Assembly (NCBI GenBank): GCA_964403755.1
Contig: CAYOHO010000001.1
Location: 1 to 26,432, forward strand
Length of the DNA stretch: 26,432 nt
Direction: 5' to 3'
DNA from: an uncultured Oscillospiraceae bacterium
Lineage (GTDB): Bacteria > Bacillota > Clostridia > Saccharofermentanales > UBA5734
Shown here piece after piece: positions 919 through 19,401 of the stretch (within the stretch, counting starts at the first letter, position 1; each line of letters starts with the position of its first letter). The notes under the pieces are model-generated. The model was given only the letters and a program-made list of their open reading frames with translations. It did not search any database and was not told the origin of the DNA. A program made the translations under genes and the position numbers.

Positions 919-2352
919 TCAGTGCGGCTGAACTGTCAGCGGCACCGGGTTGCGGTAGGTCTTGCCGCCAAGGTTCTTCACATGTTCGGCCTTGGCAGCA
1001 GCCAGCAGCTCCGGGTCCTTCAGAAGATCATAGGCGGTCATGGCAATCGCCTTGGCGGCTGACAGCATGCCTTTCATGGCAACGGACGAGAGGCCGGCCG
1101 ACACCCATTGCCAGGAATGGGCAGCAGTCCCATAAGGCATGCATCCGCCGATCATCTGAACGGTCGGCGCAAACCAGCTGGGATCGCCCACATCCGTTGA
1201 TGCGGTCATCAGCTTGGGCGGGAAGGTCAGCTCCACCAGTCCTTCCTGCACGGATCGGGCGCTGAGCGCATCGATCTCCTCCGGGCTGGCGGACGGGAAA
1301 TAGCGGCGGGTCTTCTGGCGGAGCGACTTGATGACCGATTCGCTCAAGGTGCTCCGGTACTGGGCGTAGTCTTCCCGTTCCGCGTCGGAGACCTTCATCG
1401 GGTAGATCCGCTGCATGTTGGCATACATGGCGCTGGCCAGGGTCCGGTTGACGATGAAGTTCGCGCAGGCGCCATCCCACTGGATATCGACCTCGGTCTC
1501 CGTCATCATGGCAGCGCCGCAGGCGATCTTGAAGACACGCTCGTAGATCTCCTCCATCTCCTCAAGGCCGGGGGCCCGCACGAAATAGTGCAGGCGCGAC
1601 GTTGCCTGGACGACATTGGCGGCGGTTCCGCCAGCATCGAGGAAGGCATAGTGGATTCGGGCGTCGTCGATGATGTGCTCGCGGAGAAAATTGACGCCGA
1701 CATTCATCAGCTCGGCGGCATCGAGCGCACTGCGGCCCATTTCCGGCGCGCCTCCGGCATGGGCGGCCGTCCCCTTGAACGTGAAGTAGAACTGGCTGAC
1801 CGCCAGGGTTGCCTGGTCCCAGAGGCCGTTCGTATCCCAGGGGTGCCAGGTCAGGTAGGCATCCTCCCCGCCGAAGACGCCGGCGCGGGCCATGAACGCC
1901 TTGCCATAGCCGCTTTCCTCTGCCGGGCAGCCGTAAAGCCGGATCGTTCCCGGATGGCCGCTCGCCTCGAGGTACTGCTTGATCCCGATTGCGCCGGCCA
2001 CGGCGCCGATGCCCAGCAGATGGTGGCCGCAGCCATGGCCGCTGCCGCCATCGGTCAGCGGCTTCTTCTCGTGCACGCCCGCTTCCTGGCTCAGGTTGGA
2101 CAAGGCGTCGAATTCCGCCAGGATGCCGATGACCGGCTTCCCTGAGCCGTACTCGGCCAGAAACGCATGCTCCATGCCGGCCAGGCCGGTCTGAAGCCGG
2201 AAGTTCTCGCTTTCCAGCAGCGCCTTGACGTTCCGGGTCGATTCGGGCAGGTCGAAGCGCAGCTCCGGGGTGTTCCAGATCTGCCTGCTCAGGCTGATGT
2301 ACGTTTCCCGGCTGTCCTCGATGGCTTGAATGATCTGGTCCTTGACGTCCAT
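919..2352 (-). CDS. M20D family amidohydrolase, p-aminobenzoyl-glutamate hydrolase subunit B (AbgB)-like
   Basis: 477 aa. Motifs AEFDAL, GHGCGHHLLG, GCPAEESG, TWHP, AAHAGGAPEMGRSALDAAELM, STDVGD and AHSWQ. A GAAAGGA ribosome-binding site lies upstream. Confidence 0.9.
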   Translation of the reverse strand: MDVKDQIIQAIEDSRETYISLSRQIWNTPELRFDLPESTRNVKALLESENFRLQTGLAGMEHAFLAEYGSGKPVIGILAEFDALSNLSQEAGVHEKKPLTDGGSGHGCGHHLLGIGAVAGAIGIKQYLEASGHPGTIRLYGCPAEESGYGKAFMARAGVFGGEDAYLTWHPWDTNGLWDQATLAVSQFYFTFKGTAAHAGGAPEMGRSALDAAELMNVGVNFLREHIIDDARIHYAFLDAGGTAANVVQATSRLHYFVRAPGLEEMEEIYERVFKIACGAAMMTETEVDIQWDGACANFIVNRTLASAMYANMQRIYPMKVSDAEREDYAQYRSTLSESVIKSLRQKTRRYFPSASPEEIDALSARSVQEGLVELTFPPKLMTASTDVGDPSWFAPTVQMIGGCMPYGTAAHSWQWVSAGLSSVAMKGMLSAAKAIAMTAYDLLKDPELLAAAKAEHVKNLGGKTYRNPVPLTVQPH

Positions 2353-2437: not shown

Positions 2438-3364
2438 TCAGGACGGCCTGTCTGTCTCCCCCATCCTGGTCATCAGGCTTTTCCGGTACTTGACCGGTGA
2501 CTGTCCCATTTCACGCTTGAAGCATTCCGTAAAGTAGCTGCTGCTGCCAAATCCGACCTGCTGGGCAATATCCGAGATGCACAGGTCCGTTGACGACAGA
2601 TACATGAGGCTTTGCGAGATCCGGTACTGGATCAGGTACTCGAAAGGCGTCAGGTCGAGGACACGCCGGAACAGGCGGCAGCATTCGCTGCGGCTGATAT
2701 GGATCGAATCGGCAATGTCCTTGAGTGTCAGGGGTTCGGCATGGTTCGCCTGGATGCAGCTCACCATCTTGCGGATCTTGATCCGGTTCTCAAAGGAGAT
2801 CCGGCGGCACGTCTCGATCTTCTCCCGGTTGTGCTGGATCAGCAGCTGCCACATCTGGCTGATGCAGCATTTCTGGCCCAGCTCGTAGCCGAACTCATGG
2901 CGGCGCTCCAGGGCGATGAGCTGCTCGACGAGCGCACAGAAGTCGCGGTGCCAGCCGGACGGGCCGGTCAGCGGAATGAAGGCCAGGTCAACGGAATTGA
3001 GAACCGGGTAGACATAGTCAAGATAGATGCTGCTGTCCATCTGGCCATAGATCAGGCCGGGATGGAAATTGACGCTTATGTAGACGCTGTCGGTCTGGTC
3101 CGGAAGCAGAACCGCCTCGTGCAGGCAGCAGCTGTTGATGAACAGGGCCTGTCCCTGACCGATCAGGGCCTCTGTTCCGTCGCCCCGGAACAGGACACGG
3201 CCTTTCGTGACGTAGGAAATCTGGATGCCGTCATGCCAGTGGCGGATCGCATTGATCCGGGAGTCAGCCACCTGCTGCTCGTCGAATGATAGCGGGAAGC
3301 TGTCCGTCATGTATTCGGACGGTTCCCGCTGGTTGCTGTCGATGACGATTGGCCGCAGCTTCAT
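2438..3364 (-). CDS. AraC family transcriptional regulator (N-terminal cupin plus C-terminal double HTH)
   Basis: Start placed at MKLRPIV (3364, GGAG upstream) rather than the track start at 3430. Cupin motif HWHDGIQ and AraC HTH signature LKDIA...SRSECCRLF...ISDIAQQVGFGSSSYFTECFKREMGQSPVKYRK. Confidence 0.92.
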   Translation of the reverse strand: MKLRPIVIDSNQREPSEYMTDSFPLSFDEQQVADSRINAIRHWHDGIQISYVTKGRVLFRGDGTEALIGQGQALFINSCCLHEAVLLPDQTDSVYISVNFHPGLIYGQMDSSIYLDYVYPVLNSVDLAFIPLTGPSGWHRDFCALVEQLIALERRHEFGYELGQKCCISQMWQLLIQHNREKIETCRRISFENRIKIRKMVSCIQANHAEPLTLKDIADSIHISRSECCRLFRRVLDLTPFEYLIQYRISQSLMYLSSTDLCISDIAQQVGFGSSSYFTECFKREMGQSPVKYRKSLMTRMGETDRPS

Positions 3365-3407
3365 GGCACTCCGCTCCGTTCTGGCCGGAACATCCGGCCG
3401 GTTCCGT

Positions 3408-4685
3408 TCAGAACCGCACGAGCCGGTCAAGCCGGGCCATCTGGCAGCCCGGGTTCAGGCTGTTGACCCGCATCAGGAAATTGAGCTTTTCAATGCGTTC
3501 GCCGGAGCGCGGGCAGCCGTTCTTGAGGAACGGGACGCCCAGGCCGACTGCCAGATCCATGATGATGTCGTCGATCACGCCCCCGGAGCGTCCGGAGGGC
3601 GTCGAGAGCAGGCCCTGGCTCAAGGCATAGGCATGGGCGTCCAGCGCTTCGCTGATCGTGCCGATCTGGTTCGGCTTGAGGATGAACCCGTCGATCGCGT
3701 CCAGGGCATGTGCCTTTTCCAGTCGCTCCCGGCTGGACACCGTGAGGTCGTCGCCAATCAGGAGAGTCCGGTCAAGCTGCCGGTGGGCCAGGGCAAATCC
3801 TTCCCAGTCGTTTTCATCCAGCAGGTCTTCAATGAAGACAAAGTCGAACCGCCTGGAAAGGTCGCGATAGTAGCCGATCAGCTCGGCCGTCTGCCATTGC
3901 CGGCCGTTCAGGTAGTAGGTTCCGGAGGCGGCATCGTACATGGCGCTGGCCGCGCAGTCGAGCGCAAACGAGCATTTGCCGGCGTAGCCCTTGGCAGCGA
4001 GCGCCTCGGACAGGATATCCAGGACCACCGCGGGATCCTCGGAAGGGGCGACCCAGCCATAGGAGCGGCCGACTTTGGCTTCGGAGCCGGTTCGCCGCGC
4101 GATCACCCGGCCGACCTCGGCGAAGGTCCGGACGGCGATCTCGACCGCCTCCTCAATGGCGGCGGCCCGCCAGGGCACGACGATGAACTCGTTGATTGCC
4201 TGCCTGACCGCACCGTTGCTGCCGCCGTTGATCATATTGAACGAGGGTACCGGCACCTGGCGGATCGGGCCATCCGCCAGGTATTCATAGACCGTCCGGC
4301 CGGCGCTTCTGGCAGCAGCGCGCAGGATCGCGACCGACGTGCTGTAGATCGAGTTGCCGCCAAGCCGGTGCTTGTCGGGTGTGCCATCCAGGTCGATCAT
4401 GATCTGGTCAAGCCGGCGGAAGTTGGCTGCATCCTGGCCGACGAGCTCGGGTGCTATGATCCGGTTGACGACGTCGACCGCCTTGTGCACGCCCAGGCCG
4501 TCATACTCGTCCGGATTGCCGTCGCGCAGGATGAAGGACTCATAGGCGCCGACCGATTTGCCCGTCGGTGCGCTGCCGCGCCCGAGCGAGCCGTCATCGG
4601 TAACGACGTCAACCTCGACCATCGGCCGGCAAGCCATGTCGATCAGCTGCCGGGCGGACACCTGCCTGATGATGGATGGTTTCAT
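3408..4685 (-). CDS. Enolase-family protein, a divergent phosphopyruvate hydratase paralog with altered catalytic residues
   Basis: True start is MKPSIIRQ at 4685 (GGAAGGG upstream, ATGA overlap with the kinase stop); 425 aa. It aligns over its full length with enolase: LRDG, DLDGT, NMINGG, LDCAAS, IEDL, GDDL, LKPNQIG, GRSG, LKNG. Several catalytic motifs are substituted (see findings). Confidence 0.9.
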   Translation of the reverse strand: MKPSIIRQVSARQLIDMACRPMVEVDVVTDDGSLGRGSAPTGKSVGAYESFILRDGNPDEYDGLGVHKAVDVVNRIIAPELVGQDAANFRRLDQIMIDLDGTPDKHRLGGNSIYSTSVAILRAAARSAGRTVYEYLADGPIRQVPVPSFNMINGGSNGAVRQAINEFIVVPWRAAAIEEAVEIAVRTFAEVGRVIARRTGSEAKVGRSYGWVAPSEDPAVVLDILSEALAAKGYAGKCSFALDCAASAMYDAASGTYYLNGRQWQTAELIGYYRDLSRRFDFVFIEDLLDENDWEGFALAHRQLDRTLLIGDDLTVSSRERLEKAHALDAIDGFILKPNQIGTISEALDAHAYALSQGLLSTPSGRSGGVIDDIIMDLAVGLGVPFLKNGCPRSGERIEKLNFLMRVNSLNPGCQMARLDRLVRF

Positions 4686-6115
4686 GCCCTTCCTCCAGTC
4701 TCCGCTGCCGGCACATACAGGACGTTGAAGTCGCAGAGGTTCGTGCCGGTATTGCCGGTCAGGATTGTATCGCCGAGGGCGTCGAGGGACTCGAAGCAGG
4801 CATGCCCGCGCAGTCCGGCGCGCAGGTCGATGCCGCTTCCGGAGGCCCGGCGTGCGGTCTGTGAATCCGTGATGCCGCCGGCAACCGACGTGGTGCCGTC
4901 CGTGCCTTCGGAATCGATTGAAAGCAGGCAGGCGCCAGGCACACTGCCGGCGGTGAGCGCAAAGCTGGCAACCATCTCCTGTCCGGGCCCGCCATGTCCG
5001 GCAATCTGCTGATTGTCCAGGATGGTCGTCACAGCCTCGCCGGAGCTCAGCACCAGGCACGGCGCGGAGACCGGATTGCCGTAGGTCTGGATCTCCCGCG
5101 CCAGCGCAGCCATCACCGTGCCGATATCCTTGGCTTCACCGTCCAGGAACGAGCTGAGGATGACGGCCGGGATGCCCATCTCGCCGGCGATCTCCCTGGC
5201 GTAGCGGCAGGAGTCCGGCACGGTGTTGATCAGGTAATAGGTGTTGTCCGGGAAGGCCTTGGGCGTCTCACCCTCCGGGCCGGCGTTCATCAGGTAGTCG
5301 ACGACGGAACGGGGAAGGCGGTCCTCCACCTGGTATTCCCGGATGACGCGGCGGGCATCCTCGAGGGTCGTCTGGTCGGGCCCCATCGGCGTCGCGCGGT
5401 ATCTGGCGTAAGGGACACTGATATCGCCGGTCGGCGGCGAGGCAATCGCATCGCTGATGCCGAATCCGATCAGGGTGCCGCCGCGGCGCTGGATCCGCCT
5501 GGCCAGCATGCCCCCGTTCATCTGCGAGATATGGCGCCGGATGGCATTGATTTCAAAGATGTTGGCTCCGGACTTCAGCATGACATCGGTCGTGTCGATC
5601 TCGTCCTGCAGGGTGATGCCATCGATTGGCAGGCTCATCAGGGCCGAGCTGCCGCCGCTCATCACGACCAGGAACAGGTCATCCGGCCCGCTGGCGTCAA
5701 CGATATCGAGGATTTCCCGGCACGCCTTCATGCCGGTCTCGTTCGGCAAGGGGTGGCCGCCGACAAACACCCGCGTCTTGCGGAAGACATCCGCAGGCTC
5801 GGCAATCTTGACGATTGCGATGCCATCGGTCAGCCAGTCGCCCAGGATCTCGTCAATAGCCATTGCCATCGCATTGCAGGCCTTGCCGGCGCCGATCAGG
5901 TAGACATGGCGCCTGGCCGCCAGATCCCAGCTCCGGTCGCCGATGCGCAGGATCTGGCCGTCCCGGTGAACGATCTGCCGGATCCGCGCGTAGGCATTCA
6001 GGCGGACGAGCGTCCGCTCCACAAGGTCCAGCACGATGCGTCGGGATTCCGTATCCCCATGAGCCGTCAGGCGCTCCCGGTTCTTGATGATTGCAGCCAC
6101 GATATCCTCCCGCAT
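4682..6115 (-). CDS. MOFRL/DUF4147 family kinase (glycerate 2-kinase / TtuD-like), divergent
   Basis: Start placed at MREDIV (6115); 477 aa. Motifs IGAGKA, GGHPLP, SGGSSAL, GANIFEIN, SGEA, GTDG and TGNTGTNLCD match the glycerate-2-kinase fold. Confidence 0.88.
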   Translation of the reverse strand: MREDIVAAIIKNRERLTAHGDTESRRIVLDLVERTLVRLNAYARIRQIVHRDGQILRIGDRSWDLAARRHVYLIGAGKACNAMAMAIDEILGDWLTDGIAIVKIAEPADVFRKTRVFVGGHPLPNETGMKACREILDIVDASGPDDLFLVVMSGGSSALMSLPIDGITLQDEIDTTDVMLKSGANIFEINAIRRHISQMNGGMLARRIQRRGGTLIGFGISDAIASPPTGDISVPYARYRATPMGPDQTTLEDARRVIREYQVEDRLPRSVVDYLMNAGPEGETPKAFPDNTYYLINTVPDSCRYAREIAGEMGIPAVILSSFLDGEAKDIGTVMAALAREIQTYGNPVSAPCLVLSSGEAVTTILDNQQIAGHGGPGQEMVASFALTAGSVPGACLLSIDSEGTDGTTSVAGGITDSQTARRASGSGIDLRAGLRGHACFESLDALGDTILTGNTGTNLCDFNVLYVPAAETGGRA

Positions 6116-6211
6116 CTGCCTTTTCCCTGCCGGAACGGAGTCCGTCTGACAGGCAGGGCTGGCTGATCTGCGCAATATTGCCAGCTCCGGGCCGACAAGC
6201 CCTTCCTTATG

Positions 6212-6240
6212 AAACTAGAAAAGATCAGATGATTTGTCAA
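6212..6240 (-). promoter_or_regulatory. sigma70/sigmaA promoter for the kinase-enolase-araC transcript (TTGACA-17 nt-TAGTTT)
   Basis: The minus strand has a perfect -35 TTGACA (6240-6235), an exact 17-nt spacer and a -10 TAGTTT (6217-6212). Predicted +1 is near 6205, about 90 nt upstream of the kinase ATG. Confidence 0.7.
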
Positions 6241-6370
6241 TCCGTCGTGTGAAATTGTTGATTGGATCAAAATGGTTTCGTTGTATCCGCTTCTTGATTG
6301 TGCAAGTCGACGTGACCAGACGACTTTCGCGTATAAATCCGATCAGCCGGCGCACTTCAGCCATGGTCGT

Positions 6371-6404
6371 CAATATTGTTATAAAATGATGGAAGATTGC
6401 GATA
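6371..6404 (+). promoter_or_regulatory. Candidate operator (imperfect direct repeat at 21-bp spacing) overlapping a possible extended -10 for the rightward operon
   Basis: caatattgttata (6371-6383) and gaagattgcgata (6392-6404) match at 9 of 13 positions. TGtTATAAA lies at 6377-6385 with no consensus -35. Confidence 0.35.
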
Positions 6405-6476
6405 TCTCAGTTTCCCGTTTTCACTTATTTTGATTGTAGAAATATCGTCACCCGTTCAGCAATGTAGGGCACCACC

Positions 6477-7796
6477 ATGAGCCTCACAAGCCTGACTCCG
6501 ACGATTCAGTCATTGGCCTCCGATTTCCTGCCTGACACCATTGACTTCTGCCAGCGCCTCATCCGCAGACCTTCCTTGCCCGGATCCGAAAAGGATGTCG
6601 CCGACGCCTATCTGGCCGAGATGGAAAAGCTTGGCTATGATGAGGTCTTCCGCGATGCCTGGGGCAATGTCATCGGCCTCGTCCGCGGCACCGAGCCCGG
6701 CCCGACGATCATGTACAACGCGCATCTCGACCATGTCGACCCGGGCGACCTGTCTGCCTGGGAAGGCTACGATCCCTACGGCGCAGCCATCGACGAGGCG
6801 GAGATGGAAAACCAGGACCGCGACGCGCTGGAGCGGACCCGTGTGATCCACGGCCGCGCCGCCGCCGACACCAAGGCCGGCGGCGCCTGCCAGGTGTACA
6901 GCGGCGCCATGCTGCTCCGCATGCGGGCCCAGGGCATCCCGATCCGTGGCAACTATCTGTTCACGGCGGTGGTCCTGGAGGAGCCAGCCGAGCAGCTCGG
7001 CATGATCAAGCTGATTGACGAGACGCTCCCGGCCCGGGGCATCGGCTTCGACGGCGTCGTGTCCTGCGAGGCGACCGGCCTGAAGCTCTATCTCGGCCAC
7101 CGCGGGCGCGTGGAAATCAAGGTGACGACCCACGGCCTGTCTTCACACAGCAGTTCACCCTGGCTTGGCATCAACGCCGTCAACAAGGCGACCCGCTTCA
7201 TTGACCGGATCGAGGAAGTGGTCGCCCGGCAGGCGCGCGTCGACGCCGATGTCGGCCGGTCCAGCATCGCCCTGAAGTACATCGACTGCGAGCCGGGCTC
7301 GATGAGCATCGTTCCCGACCGCTGCAACATGATCTATGACCGTCGCTTCATACCCGGCGAGACGGCCGACGACTGCATCAGCCAGATCCAGGAGCTGATC
7401 GGCACCCTGGAGGCCGGCGATCCCCAGTTCAAGGCGACGGTCGCGGTCGCTGCCGAAACGCGCACGTCTTATACCGGACTGTCCCAGAAGGTTGCGAATG
7501 TCAAGCAGGCCTGGAAGATCAGCCCGGAAAATGTCTTTGTCTCACGGGCCGCAGATGCGCTGCAGGCACTCGGCCAGCCGGTCAAGTACGGCTACTGGGA
7601 TTTCGGGACCGACCTGGCTGTTGTCTGCGGCCGGGATGGGAAGCCTGCCATCGGCTATTCGCCGATGCAGGAGTTCTATTGTCACCGGCCGGTCGACAAG
7701 GTGCGGATCGACTACATGGAAAAGGCTCTGGCAGGCTATGCCATGATCCATTTCCATCTCGCCGGTCTCGCGCAGGACGATTTCCAGCTTTCCTGA
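6477..7796 (+). CDS. M20 family metallo-amidohydrolase, YgeY-like
   Basis: 439 aa. Metal-site motifs AHLDHV, GRAAADTK, LEEP, CEAT and CHRP. RGRVEIKVTTHGLSSHSSSP and DRRFIPGET resemble the YgeY/ArgE dimerisation domain, and EMEKLGYDEVFRDAWGNVIG resembles the YgeY N-terminus. Confidence 0.8.
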   Translation: MSLTSLTPTIQSLASDFLPDTIDFCQRLIRRPSLPGSEKDVADAYLAEMEKLGYDEVFRDAWGNVIGLVRGTEPGPTIMYNAHLDHVDPGDLSAWEGYDPYGAAIDEAEMENQDRDALERTRVIHGRAAADTKAGGACQVYSGAMLLRMRAQGIPIRGNYLFTAVVLEEPAEQLGMIKLIDETLPARGIGFDGVVSCEATGLKLYLGHRGRVEIKVTTHGLSSHSSSPWLGINAVNKATRFIDRIEEVVARQARVDADVGRSSIALKYIDCEPGSMSIVPDRCNMIYDRRFIPGETADDCISQIQELIGTLEAGDPQFKATVAVAAETRTSYTGLSQKVANVKQAWKISPENVFVSRAADALQALGQPVKYGYWDFGTDLAVVCGRDGKPAIGYSPMQEFYCHRPVDKVRIDYMEKALAGYAMIHFHLAGLAQDDFQLS

Positions 7797-7977: not shown

Positions 7978-9102
7978 ATGGATACCAGAATTGAATTCCT
8001 GTACTTGTCCGAGCCGGACACGATTGCCGCCGGCGTAAACGACCGGGCCGCCTGTGTCGATGTCTGCCAGGAAGTGTTCGCGCTTCTGGCCAAAGGCGAC
8101 TACCTGATGGGCGGACCGACACACAACAGCCATGGCATGGGGATCATCTTCCCCAGGCAGACACCCTTCCCGAACATGCCGGTCGCCGGTCCGGACCGCC
8201 GCTTCTTTGCCATGCCGGCATACCTGGGCGGCCGCTTCGACTGCTGCGGCAACAAGTGGTACGGCTCCAACGCCGCCAACAAGGAGAAGGGACTGCCGCG
8301 TTCAATCCTGACGGTCATGCTGAACGACAAGGACACCGGTGCACCCTTTTGCCTCATGTCAGCAAACCTGCTCAGTGCTGCCCGAACCGGAGCCGTCCCG
8401 GGTGTCGGAACCCGACATCTGGCACGCAAGGATGCAGCCGTCCTTTCCCTGATCGGCTGCGGACCGATCAACCAGGCCTGCATGGACCATATCCTGACGC
8501 AGGCTGCCGGCATCAGGAAGGTTATCTGCCATGCCATTCACCAGTCATCGATGGAGCGCATGGCCGCCTATGTGCGGGAAAAGTACCAGATCGAGGCCGA
8601 GGCAAATGCCGACCTCGAGTCAGCTGTCCGGGAATCCGACATCGTTTCGGTCGCGGCTTCCCGGGTGAAGCCGCTGAAGCTCGAGCATGCCTGGCTGAAG
8701 AAGGGCGCCCTGGTCCTGCTGTCAGGGCCCTCGCAGGGCGACGACGACTTCTGGCTGAAGAGCACGGTCGTCTACGACCACATCGGCCTTCACGAGGCCT
8801 ATGTCAGCGAGGCGATCGAGTCGGGCGACCGGGAAGGCTACTATCGCGGCGTCATCGGCGGGCCGATCTATGCCATGATCGATCAGGGCCGGCTGCCCGC
8901 TCTGCAGGACAGCCGCAGCAAGAGCATCGGCCAGATCATCCTTGGCGAGCAGGCAGGCCGCCAGTCGGATGATGAAACCATCATTTTCGTAGCCTGCGGC
9001 ATGGCGGTGTTCGATGTCGGCTGGGGCTACACCGTCTATCAGAACGCGCTGCGCAAGGGCATCGGCCAGAAGCTGCTGCTCTGGGACAAGCCAGCCCTCT
9101 AG
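7978..9102 (+). CDS. Ornithine cyclodeaminase / mu-crystallin family protein, similar to the subgroup annotated 'tyramine oxidase subunit B' (TynB)
   Basis: 374 aa with an AAGGAG ribosome-binding site. FLYLSEPD, DRRFFAMPAYLGG, KWYGSNAANKEKGLPRS, MSANLLSAARTGAVPGVG, Rossmann GCGPIN and C-terminal GMAVFDVGWG are all typical of this subgroup. Confidence 0.85.
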   Translation: MDTRIEFLYLSEPDTIAAGVNDRAACVDVCQEVFALLAKGDYLMGGPTHNSHGMGIIFPRQTPFPNMPVAGPDRRFFAMPAYLGGRFDCCGNKWYGSNAANKEKGLPRSILTVMLNDKDTGAPFCLMSANLLSAARTGAVPGVGTRHLARKDAAVLSLIGCGPINQACMDHILTQAAGIRKVICHAIHQSSMERMAAYVREKYQIEAEANADLESAVRESDIVSVAASRVKPLKLEHAWLKKGALVLLSGPSQGDDDFWLKSTVVYDHIGLHEAYVSEAIESGDREGYYRGVIGGPIYAMIDQGRLPALQDSRSKSIGQIILGEQAGRQSDDETIIFVACGMAVFDVGWGYTVYQNALRKGIGQKLLLWDKPAL

Positions 9103-9217
9103 CCTGAGTCCAGCCGAATCCGTCTGCATCTGTCCGGAGGCGCCTGTCGGCCGCCATGCCGGAAAAGCCATTCAACAGGCACCGCTCAAGAATCAACACT
9201 CGAGAAGGAGTAACAAG

Positions 9218-10090
9218 ATGGCTGTAAAGATCGAAGAAAAAGAGATGGACGAGAAGATCAGTTCTGACTATAGTTTTGTCAGGGACTGGAAATTCCACCT
9301 GATCATCCTGATCGCCTGCATGATTTCCGACAAGATCGGCGCGATCGTCATCCCGGTCTGGGGATCGGTTCGGGTCACGCTGCTTCCGCTGCTGTATTCG
9401 ATGGCCATTGTCACGGCCCTCTACCTGTTCAAGCCCTTCAAGTGGGTCGGCACCAAGAACAACGCTGCCGGCGCCCTGATGATGGGCCTCTCGACGATCC
9501 TGCTGATGGCCAAGCTGGGCTTCACCGTCGGCGCCAACCTGAAGGTCATCTGGGAATCCAGCATTCCGCTGCTGTTCTCAAACCTGGCTGACTCCATGAC
9601 CTGCATCCTGGCCCTGCCGCTGGCCCTGGCGCTGGGCCTGAAGCGGGAGTCGATCGGCCTGACGTTCGCCAACTCCCGCGAGGCGGGCATTGCGATCATC
9701 GAGAACCGCTATGGCGACGGCGCCGAGCTGCGTGGCGTCATCGGCATGTACATCACCGGCACCGTCTTCGGCACGATCACCGTCGGCATCCTGTCCAGCG
9801 TCTTCACGACGACCGGCCTGTTCAGCCTCGAAGCCGTCGCCATGGCAGCCGGCATCGGCTCCGCATCCATGTCCACCGCCGCCATCGGCACGATGGTCTC
9901 GATGTTCCCGGCAATCGAGCAGAAGATCTCCGCCTTTGTCATCGCCTCCAACCTGATCTCCAGCGTCCTTGCCATCTATGTCGGCCTGTTCATCAACCTG
10001 CCGATCACGGAATGGATGTACAAGCGGCTTTCGCCGCTCCTTGGCAAGAAGGCGAAGGCTTCAACAGCACCGGCTAAGGCTGAAGGATAA
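9218..10090 (+). CDS. DUF3100 family membrane protein, large subunit of a putative two-subunit secondary transporter
   Basis: Start placed at MAVKIEE (9218, GAAGGAG upstream); 290 aa, polytopic. Motifs DWKFH, LLPLLY, LGLKRESIG, SRE, RGVIGMYITGTVFG and AMAAGIGSAS. Confidence 0.72.
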   Translation: MAVKIEEKEMDEKISSDYSFVRDWKFHLIILIACMISDKIGAIVIPVWGSVRVTLLPLLYSMAIVTALYLFKPFKWVGTKNNAAGALMMGLSTILLMAKLGFTVGANLKVIWESSIPLLFSNLADSMTCILALPLALALGLKRESIGLTFANSREAGIAIIENRYGDGAELRGVIGMYITGTVFGTITVGILSSVFTTTGLFSLEAVAMAAGIGSASMSTAAIGTMVSMFPAIEQKISAFVIASNLISSVLAIYVGLFINLPITEWMYKRLSPLLGKKAKASTAPAKAEG

Positions 10091-10103
10091 GGAGTGCGGA
10101 AAA

Positions 10104-10565
10104 ATGAGTGTAAAGGCGTTTGCAAAAAATGAAATCCGGGACTGGTTCGCCGGTCTGGCCATCCTGGCCATGATGGGATGCGTCGGCAACTACGTTGGCT
10201 ACAAGGTGCCGATCCTCGACTCGCTTCCGGGCATGCTCATCCTGTTCGTGATCTCGATCGCCGGCCTGTTCGTCACCAAGCTCATTCCCGGCAAAATGCC
10301 GGCCATGCTGTATGTCTCCGTAGTCGCGATCCTTGTGTCGATGCCCTATACGCCCATCGCGGCCATCCTGACGCCCTACGTCAACAAGATCAACCTGATG
10401 GCGATCGTCACGCCGATCCTCGCCTATGCCGGCGTCATTGTCGGCCGTGACTGGGATGCCTTCCGCAAGCTCAGCTGGAAGGCAGTTGTCGTCGGCATCG
10501 TGGTCATCTTCGGCGCCTTCTTCTGGGGCGCGCTGATCGCCGAAGTGCTCATCAAGGTCACCTGA
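10104..10565 (+). CDS. Small membrane protein, probable partner subunit of the DUF3100 protein
   Basis: Start placed at MSVKAF (10104, AAGGAG upstream); 153 aa with about 5 hydrophobic segments. Motif TPILAYAG...D...F.KLSWK.VVV is typical of DUF3100-adjacent proteins. Confidence 0.72.
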   Translation: MSVKAFAKNEIRDWFAGLAILAMMGCVGNYVGYKVPILDSLPGMLILFVISIAGLFVTKLIPGKMPAMLYVSVVAILVSMPYTPIAAILTPYVNKINLMAIVTPILAYAGVIVGRDWDAFRKLSWKAVVVGIVVIFGAFFWGALIAEVLIKVT

Positions 10566-10579: not shown

Positions 10580-11677
10580 ATGGACAACGGACTATTCCCC
10601 ATTGCCGACGTGGCCGGGACACCCCGTGAAATCGGCCTGCAGCATGGCAGCCTGTTCACAAGGCAGATCGGGAACAGCATCCGGTGCTACCGCGACATCT
10701 TCCATGACTACGCCGGTCTGGAGTGGGAGCGGGCCAAGAAGCTTTCCCGGCGCTACATCGACATCATCGGCGACTACAATCCGGACTACCTGGAGGAGAT
10801 CCGGGGTGTCGCCGAGGGCGCCCGGATGGATTTCGAAGACATCCTGGCACTCAATTCCCGCAGCGAGCTGATGTTTGCCGGCAATCTGCTGGAGCCGCTG
10901 GAAGGCGGATGCACGTCGATCGGCATCACGGCCGAGGCCAGTGCGAACGGCGATGCGATCATTTCCCATAACTGGGACTGGAAGGCGGTCCAGCGGCAGG
11001 CGATGGTCCGGATGCGGATCACGCAGAAGAACGGCCGGCCATCCATGCTGCTGGTCACCGAGGCCGGCATCATCGGCAAGACCGGCTACAACGCCGCCGG
11101 CATCGCGCTGTTCCTGAACGCCTTGTCGACGGATGCGGCCCCGGAAGGCCTGCCGCTGCACATCGCGATGCGCGGGATCCTCGACAGCGAGTCCCTCGTC
11201 CAGGCCCTGCGGGCAGCGACCCGCATGAAGCTGGGCTGCTGCGCGAACTTCCTGATCGGCGCCCGCAATGGCGAGATCGTCGACATCGAGATCGAGAACG
11301 AGGACTTCGATGTCCTCTATCCGGAGAACGGGATCATCGTGCACACCAACCATTTCATCAGCCCGCGCCTGCCGCGCAGCCCGCGGACCGACACCATGAA
11401 ATACAAGGTGCCGGACACGTTTATCCGCCTGTGCCGGGCCAGAAAGCTGCTGGCCGGACAGGCCGGCCGGGTCACGCCGGAGTTCGTGCGCGGCGTGCTG
11501 CAGGACCATGTGGAGGCGCCCAACTGCATCTGCCGCCACGACGATCCGGCCCAGCCGGAAGGCCTGCGCATGTGCTCGGTGTTCTCCATGCAGGTCAACC
11601 TGACCCGCGGCGAGGTGCTGTTCGCAAAAGGCAACCCCTGTGAAACACCCTATGAACCCGTGGCACTGAACTTCTGA
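10580..11677 (+). CDS. C45 family peptidase (autoproteolytic Ntn-hydrolase / acyltransferase, IAT/Tan-like)
   Basis: 365 aa with an AGGAGG ribosome-binding site. G-T-P-x-E-I-G-x-Q-H-G near the N-terminus, EEIRGVAEGA, LALNSRSE, cleavage-site GG/CTS, HNWDW and HTNHF. Confidence 0.9.
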   Translation: MDNGLFPIADVAGTPREIGLQHGSLFTRQIGNSIRCYRDIFHDYAGLEWERAKKLSRRYIDIIGDYNPDYLEEIRGVAEGARMDFEDILALNSRSELMFAGNLLEPLEGGCTSIGITAEASANGDAIISHNWDWKAVQRQAMVRMRITQKNGRPSMLLVTEAGIIGKTGYNAAGIALFLNALSTDAAPEGLPLHIAMRGILDSESLVQALRAATRMKLGCCANFLIGARNGEIVDIEIENEDFDVLYPENGIIVHTNHFISPRLPRSPRTDTMKYKVPDTFIRLCRARKLLAGQAGRVTPEFVRGVLQDHVEAPNCICRHDDPAQPEGLRMCSVFSMQVNLTRGEVLFAKGNPCETPYEPVALNF

Positions 11678-11720: not shown

Positions 11721-11783
11721 TGTCCTGCCAGGCCAGCCTTCCGGGCTGTGCCTGATCATGATCATCCGCAAGGGAGTCACCGT

Positions 11784-12974
11784 ATGTTTGAAGATGAAGT
11801 CCTGCAACTGACATCCCAGCTCGTCGCGATTGAAAGCACCAACAAGGGCACTTTTGAGGGGGCGGTCGGCCAGTTCATCCAGGACTGGCTCAAGGCCAGC
11901 ACCCACGCCGAAATCAGCACCCAGGAGTTCCTGCCCGGACGCTTCAACGTGCTGGCGACCTATAAGGGGAAGGTGTCGCACCCCAACCTGCTGTATGTCT
12001 GCCACATGGATACGGTCCCGATCGGTGATGGCTGGACGGTCGATCCGTTCCGGACCACCATCCGCGACGGCCGCATGTACGGCCGCGGCACCAACGACAT
12101 GAAGTCCGGCATGGCGGCAGCCATGATCGCGTTCCGCGATATCACCAACGAATTCCATGCCAAGGGCATCATTCCGAAGTACGATTTCATCTTCATCGCC
12201 TCCGGCGACGAGGAAGACGTGATGGTCGGCGCCGACCGGCTCTGCACCAGCGGCGTCGCAACCCGCGACAGCCTGGTGCTCGACATGGAGCCGTCGTTGA
12301 TGTTCAGCGGCAAGGGGATCGAAGACCGCACGGTGGCCATGTTCGGCCACAAGGGCAAGACCTGGTTCGAGATCACGACCGAGGGCAAGACCGCCCATGG
12401 CAGCCTTCCCTACCTCGGCATCGATGCCGTTGCCGCCATGGCCGAGATCATCAGCGAGATCCGCCGTGCGATCGCCCAGTATCCGGAAGATCCGGTGATG
12501 GGCCGGCCGACCGTCTGCTTCGGCCGGATCCAGGGTGGTGTCAACACCAACATGGTTCCGGAAAAGTGCTCGCTCTGGATCGACATGCGGCTGGCACCGC
12601 CGCTGAGCGTCGAATCCTCCAAGCAGCTGGTCGCTGACGCCATCGCCACCGGGATCGCTCGCGTGCCCGGCAGCAGCGGCCATTACAGCTGCTTTGCCGA
12701 GCGCCCCTTCGTGCTGATCAACGAGGACTCCGTGCTGCTGGCGGAGCTGGACAAGGCCTCGCGCCAGGTCTTCGGCAAGCCGTGCAAGGCTGCGGTCTTC
12801 ACCGGCTACACCGACAGCGGCGTCATCGCCGGCAACTGCGGCAACGGCGAATGCATGTCGTTCGGCCCTTCCGGCGACCACTGCCACCAGCCGGACGAGT
12901 ATGTCGACTGCCAGAGCGTCCTCAACTGTCTCGAGGTCTACCGGATCGTCGCCCGCAGCATCCTGGCCGACTAG
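11784..12974 (+). CDS. M20A family metallopeptidase/deacylase, ArgE/DapE-like
   Basis: Start placed at MFEDEV (11784, AAGGGAG upstream); 396 aa. Motifs CHMDTVP, YGRGTNDMKSG, GDEED, MEPS, GKTAHGS, GGVNTNMVP, YTD and CHQPDEYV. Confidence 0.9.
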   Translation: MFEDEVLQLTSQLVAIESTNKGTFEGAVGQFIQDWLKASTHAEISTQEFLPGRFNVLATYKGKVSHPNLLYVCHMDTVPIGDGWTVDPFRTTIRDGRMYGRGTNDMKSGMAAAMIAFRDITNEFHAKGIIPKYDFIFIASGDEEDVMVGADRLCTSGVATRDSLVLDMEPSLMFSGKGIEDRTVAMFGHKGKTWFEITTEGKTAHGSLPYLGIDAVAAMAEIISEIRRAIAQYPEDPVMGRPTVCFGRIQGGVNTNMVPEKCSLWIDMRLAPPLSVESSKQLVADAIATGIARVPGSSGHYSCFAERPFVLINEDSVLLAELDKASRQVFGKPCKAAVFTGYTDSGVIAGNCGNGECMSFGPSGDHCHQPDEYVDCQSVLNCLEVYRIVARSILAD

Positions 12975-13106: not shown

Positions 13107-14552
13107 CTAAAGCGTCCTGACGCGGATGTGCTTGATGTTGAGGTACTCGTAGAGGCCTTCCGAGCCGTGCTCGTGGCCGAAGCCGCTGGCCTTCCAGCCG
13201 CCGTAGGGGGCATTGATGACGCCGGCGTCGACATTGTTGATCGCGACGTTTCCGGCCTCGATGGCCAGCGACAGGCGGCGGGCCAGGCTGAGGCTCTCGG
13301 TGAAAACGATGGCGGCGAGCCCGTAGACGGTATCGTTGGCCAGGCCGATGACCTCGTCGATGCTGTCGAAGGGCATGACGCCGACAACCGGGCCGAATGT
13401 CTCCTCCTGCATGACCTTCATCGAATGGTCGACGTCGCGCAGGACGGTCGGCTCGAAGAAGTTGCCCTTCGCGAAGCGCTCACCCGCCGGCTTTCGGCCG
13501 CCGCAGCAGATCTTCGCGCCCTTGGCCAGCGCGTCGGCGATGTGGTCCTCGGCGGTGTGCACGCCCTTGGCGGTGCACATCGGCCCGAGGTCGACCTTTT
13601 CGGTGAGGCCGTCGCCGAAGGTAAGCTTCTGCGTCTGGGCGGCGAACTTCTCGAGGAAGGCCTCGTAGATCGGCCGGGCGACGTAGATGCGGTTGACGGC
13701 GATGCAGATCTGGCCCATGTTGCGGAAGCTGCGGCGCACGGCGCCGGCGACGGCCGCGTCGAGCTTCGCGTCTTCGCAGACGATCATCGGCAGGCTGCCG
13801 CCGAGCTCGAGCGACAGGCGCTTGAGGCTCTGGCTCGCCTTGGCCATGATCTGGCGGCCGACCGCCGTGGAGCCGGTGAAGGCGATCTTGCGCACGTCCG
13901 GATGCTCGGCCAGGCGGTCGCCGACGGTGGCGCCGGGACCCGTGATGAGGTTGAGCGCACCGGCCGGAACGCCGGCGGCCAGGACGGCGCGCACGAAGGC
14001 GATGGCGCTGAGCGGCGTCTCCGACGGAACCTTGAGCACAACGGTGCAGCCGGCAGCGAGCGCGCCGCCGACCTTCCACGCCAGCAGCTCGATCGGATAG
14101 TTCCAGGGTGAGATGCAGGCGGCGACGCCGACCGGCTGATAGACGACGTGGCTCTCGATGTCGTTGCCGTCCTCATTGGGGATGATGCGGCCGAAGACGC
14201 GCTCGCCCTCCTCGGCATAATAGGCCAGGATCTGGGCGCCCTTGCGGACTTCACCGGTGGCCTCGGCCAGGGGCTTGCCTTGCTCGCGCGTCATCAGGCC
14301 GGCGATCTCCGCCTGGTTCTCGAGCACGAGCCGGGAGGCCTCGCGCAGGATGCGGCCGCGCTGGAACGGGGTCGTCCTCGACCAGGCCGGGAAGGCCGCC
14401 TTCGCGGCCGCGACGGCGGCATCGACTTCTTCGGCGCCGCCCTTCGGGACGGTGGCGAAGACCTCATTGTCGACGGGGTTGCGGACCTCGATCACCGCGC
14501 CGGACGCGGCGTCGGTCCACTGGCCGTTGATGAGCATCTTTTCCTGGATCAT
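13107..14552 (-). CDS. NAD(P)-dependent aldehyde dehydrogenase (succinate-semialdehyde dehydrogenase-like subgroup); substrate unknown
   Basis: 481 aa with an AAGGAG ribosome-binding site. Motifs PWNYP, KVPSETP, FTGSTAVG, catalytic Glu in LELGG, catalytic Cys in GQICIA, and EETFGP. Confidence 0.92.
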   Translation of the reverse strand: MIQEKMLINGQWTDAASGAVIEVRNPVDNEVFATVPKGGAEEVDAAVAAAKAAFPAWSRTTPFQRGRILREASRLVLENQAEIAGLMTREQGKPLAEATGEVRKGAQILAYYAEEGERVFGRIIPNEDGNDIESHVVYQPVGVAACISPWNYPIELLAWKVGGALAAGCTVVLKVPSETPLSAIAFVRAVLAAGVPAGALNLITGPGATVGDRLAEHPDVRKIAFTGSTAVGRQIMAKASQSLKRLSLELGGSLPMIVCEDAKLDAAVAGAVRRSFRNMGQICIAVNRIYVARPIYEAFLEKFAAQTQKLTFGDGLTEKVDLGPMCTAKGVHTAEDHIADALAKGAKICCGGRKPAGERFAKGNFFEPTVLRDVDHSMKVMQEETFGPVVGVMPFDSIDEVIGLANDTVYGLAAIVFTESLSLARRLSLAIEAGNVAINNVDAGVINAPYGGWKASGFGHEHGSEGLYEYLNIKHIRVRTL

Positions 14553-14625
14553 GGTGGCTTTCTCCTTAGCATGGGCCGGTCGGTGTCAGCGGGCGCCGGC
14601 CGGGCGGTTTTACGGGCGATCGGTT

Positions 14626-15786: not shown

Positions 15787-15789
15787 GGC

Positions 15790-19368: not shown

Positions 19369-19401
19369 ATGTGCGCTCCTGACTGCCTGCGGCCGGCCGC
19401 T

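Follow-up and report, generated by a model that had tools for sequence, protein, structure and literature searches.

We analyzed a window of 26,432 nucleotides from an uncultured Oscillospiraceae bacterium (GCA_964403755.1, contig CAYOHO010000001.1, positions 1 to 26,432; "the window" refers to this whole stretch), in which a gene for an enolase-like protein overlaps a gene for a kinase related to glycerate 2-kinase. The genes and features at the locus are as follows.

919..2352 (-), M20 amidohydrolase (TIGR01891 subfamily), downstream of the AraC gene
2438..3364 (-), AraC-family regulator downstream of the enolase-like gene; the likely start is MKLRP at 3364, whereas the listed ORF starts at a TTG at 3430
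3408..4685 (-), enolase-fold protein of 425 aa, of the 'Ser-211/Gly-373' family, predicted to be the last enzyme of the module
3576..3596 (-), SGRSGGV in place of SHRSGET (H373 to G365, E377 to G369, T378 to V370), with R366 and S367 (R374/S375) kept
3675..3677 (-), codon of K337, equivalent to the catalytic base K345, within LKPNQ
4056..4070 (-), GRSYG in place of GDEGG (general acid E211 to S208, G212 to Y209)
4212..4226 (-), GGSNG in place of GGxHA (H159 to N157)
4623..4640 (-), DMACRP in place of DSRGNP
4682..6115 (-), DUF4147+MOFRL kinase related to glycerate 2-kinase, whose stop overlaps the enolase-like start (ATGA); the listed ORF runs to a TTG at 6175, but the likely start is the ATG at 6115
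6116..6476, AT-richer divergent intergenic region between the kinase operon and the M20/OCD operon, presumed to hold the promoters and operators
6477..7796 (+), YgeY-like M20 hydrolase (PRK13004 274.8 bits, below its cutoff of 321; 30% identical to E. coli YgeY)
7978..9102 (+), ornithine cyclodeaminase/mu-crystallin (OCD) family NAD enzyme, whose best solved relative is SbnB
9014..10090 (+), DUF3100 membrane protein, a putative transporter; the true start is probably downstream of the OCD stop
9969..10565 (+), small membrane protein without a Pfam match; the start is probably later than listed
10580..11677 (+), C45 (AAT-like) autoproteolytic acyltransferase/hydrolase
11748..12974 (+), second M20 peptidase of the plus-strand operon

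The protein encoded by 3408..4685 matches Pfam Enolase_N and Enolase_C, and its best solved relative is the M. jannaschii enolase 2pa6 (E 5e-82, 38% identity; 35-38% identity to enolases). The AlphaFold (AF2) model is confident (pLDDT 88.6) and Foldseek aligned it to 2pa6 with a TM of 0.92, which is indicative of the N-terminal capping domain plus modified TIM barrel of the enolase superfamily. From the residue-by-residue alignment (yeast numbering, window residue in brackets), the retained residues are the second-metal ligand S39 (S44), E168 (E166), the Mg ligands D246/E295/D320 (D243/E286/D312), the base K345 (K337), the phosphate clamp R374/S375 (R366/S367), and K396 (K388); the Mg ligands and the base are invariant in the family, and S44, R366, S367, and K388 are invariant or nearly so. 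The original prediction, that this is an enolase paralog which keeps its base, metal, and phosphate residues but has lost the general acid, is confirmed by these alignments, and its coordinates were right to within a few bases. It did not list Q167 to N165, a change that is also invariant in the family. In a comparison of 114 family members with 69 canonical enolases, position 211 is S in 100% versus E in 100%, position 373 is G in 100% versus H in 100%, position 212 is Y in 98% versus G in 100%, and position 167 is N in 100% versus Q in 99%, a pattern far beyond chance. Position 159 is N (69), Y (49), or K (2) in the family. In enolase, H373 and E168 lie around the C3 hydroxyl, and H159 and Q167 of the closing loop contact phosphate and carboxylate. 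No other acidic residue takes the position 211 column; the presence of one there had been named beforehand as grounds for rejecting the idea, and that condition is not fulfilled. The family consensus of the N-terminal turn is DCKCRP, in which C19 and R20 are invariant; the DMACRP of the window is a minor variant shared with its 84% ortholog. Of the other signatures that define the family here (G-x-S-Y-G-[WY], S-G-R-S-G-G-V, N-E-F, K-P-N-Q, and P-R-S-G-E-R), the window has GRSYGW, SGRSGGV, NEF, LKPNQ, and CPRSGER. The 397-402 loop is also rewired relative to enolase.

We then asked whether the gene is decaying and how widely the family occurs. Against the closest, 84%-identical ortholog, dN is 0.096 and dS 0.96 (dN/dS about 0.1), and the family carries dozens of invariant columns. 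It was found in about 295 species-representative genomes across several phyla, Desulfovibrionaceae among the carriers, and on conjugative Rhizobiaceae plasmids. Cultivable carriers include Brucella anthropi ATCC 49188, Paenibacillus rhizosphaerae CECT 5831, and Faecalicatena species; in B. anthropi ATCC 49188 the kinase is WP_011982821, the enolase-like protein WP_011982820, and the OCD-family protein WP_011982819. No canonical enolase lies in any of the 95 loci examined, a comparison that covered the loci and not whole genomes, and an accessory role for the gene beside a canonical eno is only implied by its presence on conjugative plasmids of Brucella anthropi and Agrobacterium and in Paenibacillus/Psychrobacillus. 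The window protein scores above the curated cutoff of the enolase equivalog model TIGR01060 (337.8 versus 300 bits), which is why automated annotation calls it phosphopyruvate hydratase, although this conflicts with the absence of E211, H373, H159, and Q167 from its active site. It gives only sub-threshold matches to the models of other subgroups (MAAL_N 23.6 bits versus a cutoff of 27, only over residues 68-138; MR_MLE_C 24.3 bits versus 29.4), and thus no match above threshold to methylaspartate ammonia-lyase or to the mandelate racemase/muconate lactonizing enzyme subgroups. Among solved structures only canonical enolases were found and no member of this family.

The coupling to the kinase is evident in the window from the 4-base ATGA overlap with the upstream gene; a GGAGGAAGGG ribosome-binding site is also in the sequence. 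A kinase is present in 45 of 46 de-duplicated, well-flanked loci, and in 29 of 95 loci, such as L016, the two are a single fused ORF of about 895 aa. The nearest solved relatives of the kinase are the MOFRL-type proteins PH0495 (deposited as hypothetical) and TM1585 (putative glycerate kinase). Distant members of the same Ser-211 clade also sit directly after a MOFRL kinase or are fused to a phosphoglycerate-mutase-like domain, while two others lie on 2-kb contigs with no informative context. An OCD-family gene accompanies the pair in 38 of 46 loci (83%) and lies in one operon with the fusion in one locus (L013 in our numbering of the 95 loci); the gene order kinase, enolase-like, OCD is found in Rhizobiaceae and Planctomycetota. 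Recurrent neighbours are YgeY-like M20 hydrolases (13 of 46 loci), TRAP transporters, LarA-type racemases (14 of 46), glutamate dehydrogenase, and 2-hydroxyacid dehydrogenases (7 of 46), and amino-acid transporters are frequent. The OCD-family gene and the amino-acid transporters favour an amino acid as the entry compound. Some operons (loci L057, L047, and L062) join an NCS1 permease, a PreT/PreA-like reductase, and dihydropyrimidinase directly to the kinase and enolase-like genes, and other loci carry carbamate kinase with a carbamoyltransferase, HyuA-like genes or hydantoinases, an XDH-like enzyme, or YgeV-like regulators. Ureido- or ring-cleaving genes are present in 17 of 46 loci, and no ygeX homolog was found in any of the 95.

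From these observations, we propose that the gene encodes the last enzyme of a conserved three-enzyme catabolic module made up of an SbnB-like OCD-family NAD enzyme, a DUF4147/MOFRL kinase, and the enolase-fold lyase. In this view, the kinase would phosphorylate the 2-hydroxyl of a small 2-hydroxy acid, and the enolase-like protein would bind the resulting 2-phospho acid as enolase binds 2-phosphoglycerate, with carboxylate and phosphate on two Mg2+ (D243/E286/D312, S44), R366/S367, and K388. K337 would remove the C2 proton, and instead of an E211-protonated hydroxide the enzyme would expel a C3 substituent that needs no such acid, yielding phosphoenolpyruvate (PEP). Our preferred substrate is 2-phospho-isoserine, giving PEP and NH4+; the cyclodeaminase-like enzyme would convert 2,3-diaminopropionate to isoserine in a redox-neutral step, and the diaminopropionate would be released by YgeY-like, carbamoyl- or hydantoin-cleaving hydrolases. 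The analysis itself establishes the fold, the retained and lost residues, purifying selection, the coupling and fusion to the kinase, and the neighbour statistics, whereas catalysis, the substrate, the leaving group, the product, and the cyclodeaminase reaction are inferred. We consider it somewhat more likely than not that this is a non-enolase enzyme acting on the 2-phospho product of its partner kinase, but the specific isoserine/ammonia reading is doubtful, and the proposal as a whole is tentative.

The mechanistic interpretation in the original prediction, an intact enzyme that may still deprotonate C2 of a 2-phospho acid but eliminate a different C3 group (amine/ammonia, thiol, or sulfite) to give PEP, or act as an epimerase, is therefore only partly supported. 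That the gene is not a pseudogene is supported, the substitutions are confined to the C3/leaving-group side, and a 2-phospho acid substrate is strongly backed by the pairing or fusion with the kinase. The ammonia option gains indirect support from the YgeY-like and SbnB-like neighbours and the ring-opening amidohydrolase operons: the product of SbnB is diaminopropionate (TIGR03944 also matched the OCD protein), and YgeY cleaves albizziin to diaminopropionate (bioRxiv 10.1101/2025.05.19.654654). The loci with carbamate kinase and a carbamoyltransferase, hydantoinases, an XDH-like enzyme, or YgeV-like regulators, and the lack of a ygeX homolog in the 95 loci, are further pointers to diaminopropionate. 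Methylaspartate ammonia-lyase, although of a different subgroup and not acting on a 2-phospho acid as proposed here, shows that a Mg-stabilised enolate can expel an ammonium group beta to the bound carboxylate without a general acid. Nevertheless, isoserine and 2-phospho-isoserine are not known bacterial metabolites, and in the literature searched no paper combines enolase with isoserine or enolase-like with MOFRL, none contains phosphoisoserine or isoserine kinase, the two papers on the reductive uric-acid pathway do not mention enolase, glycerate kinase, or cyclodeaminase, and one hit combining OCD, glycerate kinase, and enolase (the Spironucleus genome) was irrelevant; we found no paper on the family. 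The amino acid to hydroxy acid reaction has no precedent in the cyclodeaminase family, only about a third of loci carry ureido- or ring-cleaving genes, and the YgeY-like M20s are only about 30% identical to E. coli YgeY. The frequent glutamate dehydrogenase neighbour is not specifically explained, the family-invariant R20 and E216 remain unplaced relative to the active site, the very wide distribution argues for a common substrate, and several contexts fit glycerate better.

The chief rival, less likely in our view but not excluded, is that the protein is still a 2-phosphoglycerate dehydratase in a serine/glycerate-to-PEP route, in which the cyclodeaminase-like enzyme would make glycerate from serine and the kinase would make 2-phosphoglycerate. 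It could act on D-2-phosphoglycerate with a substitute acid (Y209 or E216), or be a mirror-image enolase for (2S)-2-phospho-L-glycerate in which K337 becomes the acid and a residue on the former E211 face (possibly Y209) the base. The TIGR01060 score, the closeness of the kinase to glycerate 2-kinases, LarA of the lactate-racemase group, which includes a glycerate-preferring racemase (PMC11770544), TRAP binding proteins nearest to hydroxy/sugar-acid binders, the 2-hydroxyacid dehydrogenases, and a sugar ABC transporter and glycosidase preceding the module in Rhizobium tumorigenes all favour it, and serine and glycerate are common enough to explain the wide distribution. By inference, a cyclodeaminase-type hydride-return mechanism would give the L-hydroxy acid from an L-amino acid, which would explain why a dedicated kinase and 'enolase' are needed. 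However, E211 and H373 are invariant in canonical enolases, the yeast E211Q variant is reported to lose about 10^5-fold activity, and both positions are uniformly non-acidic here. For D-2-phosphoglycerate the housekeeping enolase would make the gene redundant, yet it is retained or fused in essentially every locus; the mirror-image mechanism is conjecture with no base demonstrated, and the YgeY-like, hydantoinase, and dihydropyrimidinase neighbours are not explained. Proton transfer without elimination, i.e., a racemase, epimerase, or tautomerase of a 2-phospho-hydroxy acid (for example L- to D-2-phosphoglycerate) whose product passes to the housekeeping enolase, is unlikely but also not excluded. 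Loss of the acid would suppress dehydration while the base and the enolate-stabilising metal site are kept, E211Q yeast enolase reportedly still exchanges the C2 proton, and the K337/Y209 pair recalls, by inference, two-base racemases; yet a LarA racemase already present in 14 of 46 loci would make it redundant, no second base is demonstrated, and the replacement of H373 and H159 would not be required for a simple loss of the acid.

An equally unlikely alternative is a PEP-forming lyase for another C3 leaving group, such as sulfite from 2-phospho-3-sulfolactate (a cysteate/sulfolactate route, the reverse of the ComA reaction) or a thiol from 2-phospho-3-mercaptolactate, or for a larger substrate whose C3 carries an extra anionic or polyol group. 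The changes E211 to Ser and H373 to Gly remove negative charge and enlarge the pocket, R20 (whose place relative to the active site is not established) and a shifted Arg (R393) are added, three acidic residues of SHRSGETED are lost, TRAP transporters, 2-hydroxyacid dehydrogenases, and a racemase fit an imported hydroxy acid, and Desulfovibrionaceae are carriers. On the other hand, no sulfite-handling, desulfonation, or sulfur genes recur in the 95 loci, the ureido/hydantoin hydrolase contexts do not lead to cysteate, and minimal operons (AraC, OCD, kinase-enolase fusion) leave no enzymes to process a product larger than C3. For the latter reason C4/C5 or sugar-acid substrates (tartrate, hydroxyglutamate, and aldonates) were ranked low, and lactate/2-phospholactate was rejected for want of a C3 leaving group. 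A different order of steps is very unlikely, in which the kinase phosphorylates a beta-hydroxyl of an amino acid, the enolase-like protein removes the alpha proton and expels phosphate to give an enamine/imine, and the cyclodeaminase-family enzyme reduces the imine, as iminosuccinate and pyrroline-2-carboxylate reductases do. Imine reduction is a known activity of the OCD family (the BhcD and Pyr2C reductase models match), the gene order kinase, enolase-like, OCD noted above is in its favour, the glutamate dehydrogenase neighbour could fit an amino-acid product, phosphate needs no general acid, and removing E211 would relieve charge repulsion; but the fully kept C2-phosphate site (R366, S367, S44, second-metal site) argues for a phosphate on the C2 oxygen, MOFRL kinases are known only as 2-kinases of glycerate, and no candidate beta-hydroxy amino acid is indicated by the contexts. 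Least likely is an inactive or decaying copy, or a purely structural or regulatory pseudoenzyme; three residues that mutagenesis and structural work reportedly tie to enolase catalysis are missing, but the low dN/dS, the invariant columns, the occurrence in about 295 genomes, the 29 in-frame fusions, and the confident model argue against it.

In comparison with enolase (EC 4.2.1.11), the first half-reaction, C2 deprotonation of a 2-phospho acid, is probably the same, but the gene lies not in a glycolytic context but in an inferred inducible catabolic operon. Glycerate 2-kinase plus enolase, as in the serine cycle and the branched Entner-Doudoroff pathway, offers a parallel in which a MOFRL-type kinase makes a 2-phospho acid that an enolase-fold enzyme converts onward, presumably to PEP here, although in the present module the two genes are translationally coupled or fused, the enolase partner has lost the dehydration acid, and an SbnB-like OCD-family enzyme is the third member. 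Under our preferred reading, the module would take the metabolic role of the diaminopropionate ammonia-lyase YgeX at the end of the reductive uric-acid (2,8-dioxopurine) pathway, disposing of the C3 diamino acid released by YgeY-type hydrolases; YgeX is a PLP enzyme that gives pyruvate, whereas this module has no PLP enzyme, spends ATP, and would give PEP, and the link is contextual only. Phosphosulfolactate synthase ComA, of a different fold family, and the enolase homolog of phosphinothricin biosynthesis (carboxy-PEP synthase) exemplify PEP-forming or PEP-consuming addition/elimination at C3 with a non-hydroxyl or modified substrate.

The enolase subgroup is, to our knowledge, usually treated as isofunctional, and because this family passes the curated enolase model, about 295 matches in species-representative genomes and many metagenome proteins risk being annotated as phosphopyruvate hydratase although they lack the dehydration acid; the few members we saw named carry 'enolase' or 'phosphopyruvate hydratase'. 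Metabolic reconstructions of gut Clostridia and Synergistaceae may thus count a glycolytic enzyme that is not one. The pairing or fusion with a kinase and an SbnB-like dehydrogenase defines a compact, testable pathway which probably feeds PEP. If the doubtful isoserine reading holds, with ammonia or an amine expelled from 2-phospho-isoserine or an N-substituted analogue, the family would be the first non-enolase function inside the enolase subgroup proper and a new reaction type in the superfamily. With an isoserine 2-kinase and an SbnB-like 'amino-to-hydroxy' deaminase it would form a PLP-independent route to central metabolism from diaminopropionate, the end product of anaerobic purine and ureido-compound breakdown, and add a new branch to that degradation in many human-gut Oscillospiraceae and Lachnospiraceae, in Synergistaceae, and on Rhizobiaceae plasmids. 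If the mirror-image reading holds, it would be a stereochemically inverted enolase. As to the remainder of the window, Rfam finds no RNA features, the small membrane protein at 9969..10565 accompanies DUF3100 in 5 loci, and the M20 amidohydrolase at 919..2352 holds the same position in the ortholog locus (L004).

The open reading frame at 3408..4685 on the minus strand encodes 425 residues and matches Pfam Enolase_N (2e-39) and Enolase_C (2.9e-55). It also scores 337.8 bits on the NCBIfam enolase equivalog TIGR01060, above the curated cutoff of 300. Its best solved relatives are all canonical enolases, the top one being M. jannaschii 2pa6 (E 5e-82, about 38% identity). An AlphaFold2 model built on a 20-sequence family alignment was confident (pLDDT 88.6, pTM 0.88) and superposes on enolase structures with TM 0.92. 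The original prediction held that this enolase paralog keeps its base, metal and phosphate residues but has lost the general acid, and the observation was borne out in our analysis. From the HMMER alignment to 2pa6 and T. brucei enolase, each of the substitutions claimed there was confirmed (positions of canonical residues are in yeast numbering):

4056-4070, minus strand: GDEGG to GRSYG (E211 to S208)
4212-4226, minus strand: GGxHA to GGSNG (H159 to N157)
3576-3596, minus strand: SHRSGET to SGRSGGV (H373 to G365)
4623-4640, minus strand: DSRGNP to DMACRP

Each residue claimed to be retained was confirmed as well: S44 corresponds to S39, E166 to E168, D243, E286 and D312 to D246, E295 and D320, K337 to K345, R366/S367 to R374/S375, and K388 to K396. 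One change, Q167 to N165, had been missed.

To determine whether these substitutions are peculiar to a single decaying copy, we performed a protein search, which returned more than 120 clusters at 59-84% identity, and compared 114 full-length members with 69 canonical enolases.

Residues that distinguish the family (114 members) from canonical enolases (69 sequences), by yeast position
211: family Ser 100%; canonical Glu 100%
212: family Tyr 98%; canonical Gly 100%
373: family Gly 100%; canonical His 100%
377: family Gly 100%; canonical Glu 93%
378: family Val 100%; canonical Thr 99%
167: family Asn 100%; canonical Gln 99%
402: family Ser 100%; canonical Arg 96%

Both groups share S39, E168, D246, E295, D320, D321, K345, R374, S375 and K396. 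The N-terminal turn (residues 17-20, about 4626-4637) is C-K-C-R in the family instead of S-R-G-N, and it changes together with the 397-402 loop (residues 389-394, about 3504-3521), which goes from T-G-A-P-A-R to N-G-C-P-R-S, although the window protein and its closest ortholog have M-A-C-R in the turn instead. These joint changes might be a rewired contact, possibly a dimer interface, rather than active-site chemistry. Relaxed selection, or a substitute acid in the column of E211, had been named beforehand as evidence against a functional enzyme with altered chemistry, and neither was found. No new Asp, Glu or His appears in the E211 column, the only family-specific acidic invariant nearby in the sequence being E216 (Asp in Rhizobiaceae), eight residues downstream. 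Against the 84%-identical ortholog in locus L004 (one of the homologous loci compared below), dN is 0.096 and dS is 0.96, giving a dN/dS of about 0.10. The gene therefore belongs to a conserved family and is not a decaying copy.

A scan of one genome per species found 295 matching stretches, of which 80 were retrieved. The carriers include Oscillospiraceae (Oscillibacter, Dysosmobacter), Lachnospiraceae (Faecalicatena contorta, F. fissicatena and F. orotica, Mediterraneibacter, Blautia, Enterocloster), Synergistaceae and Cloacibacillus, Treponema, Planctomycetota, Desulfovibrionaceae, Propionicimonas, Thermoleophilia, Paenibacillus rhizosphaerae, Psychrobacillus and Wukongibacter. A tblastn search of plasmids found the family at 51-55% identity on replicons of Brucella anthropi ATCC 49188 (pOANT01, conjugative), Agrobacterium cucumeris, Rhizobium tumorigenes, R. 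jaguaris and Shinella, and these copies carry the same SSYGY, SGRSGGV and DCKCRP signatures. On the conjugative plasmids of B. anthropi (locus L102, pOANT01 115570-140829) and A. cucumeris (locus L103, pO132a), the module is followed by a DMSP-lyase-family cupin, glutamate dehydrogenase, a 4-OT-type tautomerase and pyruvate carboxylase, and is preceded by hydantoinase A/B, an amino-acid ABC transporter, an SDR and an IlvD-like dehydratase, a layout that resembles an opine-type catabolic island. No second enolase lies in the 95 loci that we compared, and plasmid carriage, together with presence in Bacillales whose glycolytic operon includes eno, implies an accessory paralog. Public names for family members are inconsistent ('phosphopyruvate hydratase', 'enolase' and 'enolase C-terminal domain-like protein'), and because the protein passes the curated enolase cutoff this is a systematic annotation hazard.

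In the window, the start of the enolase-like gene overlaps the stop of the upstream gene (ATGA) and is preceded by GGAGGAAGGG. The two genes that flank it are as follows:

4682..6115, minus strand: DUF4147+MOFRL protein, upstream of the enolase-like gene; the mechanically called ORF (4682-6175) extends to a TTG at 6175, but orthologs align from the ATG at 6115 (MREDIV...), which is most likely the start
2438-3364, minus strand: AraC regulator, following the enolase-like gene; the mechanically called ORF (2438-3430) starts at a TTG at 3430, but comparison with orthologs indicates that the gene most likely starts at 3364 (MKLRP...)

The nearest solved relatives of the DUF4147+MOFRL protein are the MOFRL-type proteins PH0495 (deposited as hypothetical) and TM1585 (putative glycerate kinase). 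The divergent operon encodes a YgeY-like M20 hydrolase, an ornithine-cyclodeaminase (OCD)-family protein, DUF3100 plus a small membrane protein, a C45 hydrolase and another M20, and a third M20 lies beyond AraC. The ortholog locus L004 has the same layout.

We then called ORFs in 95 loci, clustered them and de-duplicated the loci at 90% identity, and neighbours were counted among the 46 loci with at least 12 kb of flank.

Neighbours of the enolase-like gene (number of loci out of 46)
Kinase: 45
OCD-family gene: 38
TRAP transporter: 19
LarA-type racemase: 14
YgeY-like M20: 13
Glutamate dehydrogenase: 12
D-2-hydroxyacid dehydrogenase: 7

The glutamate dehydrogenase lies directly after the enolase-like gene and keeps the GPAKGG motif. 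A 429-aa protein with weak DUF362 and Lar_N similarity also recurs near the module in five loci (L011/L012, L028, L034 and L079; for example L011:670-1959) and may be a further nickel-pincer-type or related enzyme. In 29 of the 95 loci (L013-L017, L019, L020, L022, L023, L025, L028, L030-L044, L048, L050 and L052; for example L016:8552-11263), the MOFRL kinase and the enolase-like protein are one ORF of about 895 aa, the kinase half of which is 65-71% identical to the window's kinase. This is a natural fusion that could be expressed as one bifunctional enzyme. In L013 the operon is simply AraC, OCD and the kinase-enolase fusion. The functional unit is therefore OCD, kinase and enolase-like protein.

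A search of representative proteins showed further, more divergent enolase-like groups, which share Ser (or another non-acid) at 211, S-x-R-[SA]-G-G in place of SHRSGE, K-P-N-Q and P-R-S-G-E-R. Several of these, which lack E211/H373 (proteins P0126, P0128, P0130 and P0150), carry an N-terminal phosphoglycerate-mutase-like histidine-phosphatase domain (His_Phos_1), which is another way of coupling the fold to an enzyme that makes a 2-phospho acid. One member (P0124) follows an MR_MLE enzyme and a MOFRL kinase, and another (P0129) follows an MttB-family methyltransferase and a MOFRL kinase, with an amino-acid-type ABC transporter nearby. The loci L098 (5068-11984) and L095 (3643-10922) hold distant members of the Ser-211 clade (42-45% identity) that also follow a MOFRL kinase but have partners other than those of the main family, namely two MttB-family methyltransferases, a branched-chain-type ABC transporter and a Zn-ADH in L098, and an MR_MLE enzyme, a GATase-domain protein and an MFS transporter in L095. 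These may be related pathways for other nitrogen compounds. Pairing with enzymes that make 2-phospho acids is thus ancient in this clade, and the upstream enzymes are mostly nitrogen-compound enzymes.

To predict the possible reaction, we considered the active site together with the gene neighbourhood. Our analysis establishes that the machinery for abstracting the C2 proton and the sites for the C2 phosphate and the carboxylate are intact, that the residues around the C3 hydroxyl are replaced, and that the protein is coupled to a 2-hydroxy-acid kinase, whereas catalysis itself, the substrate, the leaving group and the product are inferences. In this view, the protein would bind the 2-phospho product of the kinase, form the Mg-stabilised enolate with K337, and expel a C3 group that needs no E211-type acid. 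Minimal operons contain nothing to process a larger product, so PEP is the likely product and the substrate skeleton is probably C3. Two independent neighbours point to 2,3-diaminopropionate. The best solved relative of the OCD-family protein is SbnB (8e-32; TIGR03944 2e-50), which releases diaminopropionate, and the adjacent M20 is specifically YgeY-like (274.8 bits, against 123 bits for the next model), YgeY being the enzyme that cleaves albizziin to diaminopropionate in the reductive uric-acid pathway.

Several loci join the module to ureido- or ring-cleaving genes. In L057 (2741-11278), one operon runs from an NCS1 nucleobase-type permease through PreT-like and PreA-like (DHO_dh + 4Fe-4S) reductase subunits and a dihydropyrimidinase (38% identical to E. 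coli HyuA) directly to the kinase and the enolase-like gene, with OCD and M20 divergent from this operon. L047 and L062 are similar, and the arrangement looks like a reductive pyrimidine-type pathway ending in the module. L087 has carbamate kinase, a carbamoyltransferase, hydantoinase A/B and OCD, L056 has an XDH-like molybdoenzyme directly before the kinase, L066, L079 and L080 have YgeV-like sigma-54 regulators, and Synergistaceae loci add a CN_hydrolase. No ygeX homolog was found in any of the loci. Our preferred scheme, each step of which is inferred, is therefore that diaminopropionate would be converted to isoserine by a redox-neutral, OCD-type transient oxidation, that isoserine would be phosphorylated to 2-phospho-isoserine, and that the latter would be split to PEP and NH4+. 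Methylaspartate ammonia-lyase is the precedent in the superfamily for ammonia elimination without an acid.

Nevertheless, this scheme is held loosely, since only 17 of the 46 loci carry any amide-, ureido- or ring-cleaving gene and the YgeY-like proteins are about 30% identical to YgeY, while other contexts fit glycerate. The TRAP binding protein is nearest to hydroxy/sugar-acid binders (4p9k, 4pak and 4pdh), the LarA neighbours belong to the lactate-racemase group, which includes a glycerate-preferring enzyme (PMC11770544), 2-hydroxyacid dehydrogenases recur, and in R. tumorigenes a sugar ABC transporter and a glycosidase precede the module. The main rival reading is a serine/glycerate-to-PEP route, in which an OCD-type hydride return would give L-glycerate from L-serine and the enolase-like protein would be a mirror-image dehydratase, with K337 as acid and perhaps Y209 as base; we hold this with low confidence but cannot exclude it. 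Lesser rivals are sulfite or thiol elimination, a racemase, and a phosphate-eliminating variant in which OCD acts as an imine reductase. The recurrent glutamate dehydrogenase, 5-oxoprolinase-like hydantoinases and a GltS symporter hint that glutamate or 2-oxoglutarate takes part, conceivably as a leaving group, a co-product or an ammonia sink, but no scheme explains this uniquely.

By fold and sequence, the protein is a member of the enolase superfamily and of the enolase subgroup, but it lacks three defining active-site features of enolase proper and we therefore do not classify it as phosphopyruvate hydratase. Our literature and structure searches returned no paper and no solved structure for the family. 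What is new, in comparison with the canonical enzymes, is an uncharacterised and widespread functional offshoot inside a subgroup that, to our knowledge, is usually considered isofunctional, and one that belongs to a compact three-enzyme module. The interpretation offered in the original prediction is supported only in part: a functional enzyme with different C3 chemistry on a 2-phospho acid is well backed by conservation and by the kinase fusion, whereas for the specific substrate ammonia elimination from 2-phospho-isoserine is no more than the leading candidate.

Elsewhere in the window, ARAGORN called a 91-nt tRNA-Asn (19276-19366, plus strand) inside, and antisense to, the ABC ATPase ORF at 17827-19368, which is probably a false positive. 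Rfam found nothing in the window. This ORF lies within a separate cluster (13107-22220) made of genes typical of nucleoside uptake and catabolism plus others, namely an aldehyde dehydrogenase, a Metalloenzyme-superfamily protein (the superfamily that includes phosphopentomutase), two BPD_transp_2 permeases, the ABC ATPase, a PNP_UDP_1 phosphorylase, a Bmp/PnrA-type binding protein and a glyoxalase-family protein. Two SDRs, an amidohydrolase (24176-25498) and a truncated Fe-ADH follow the cluster.
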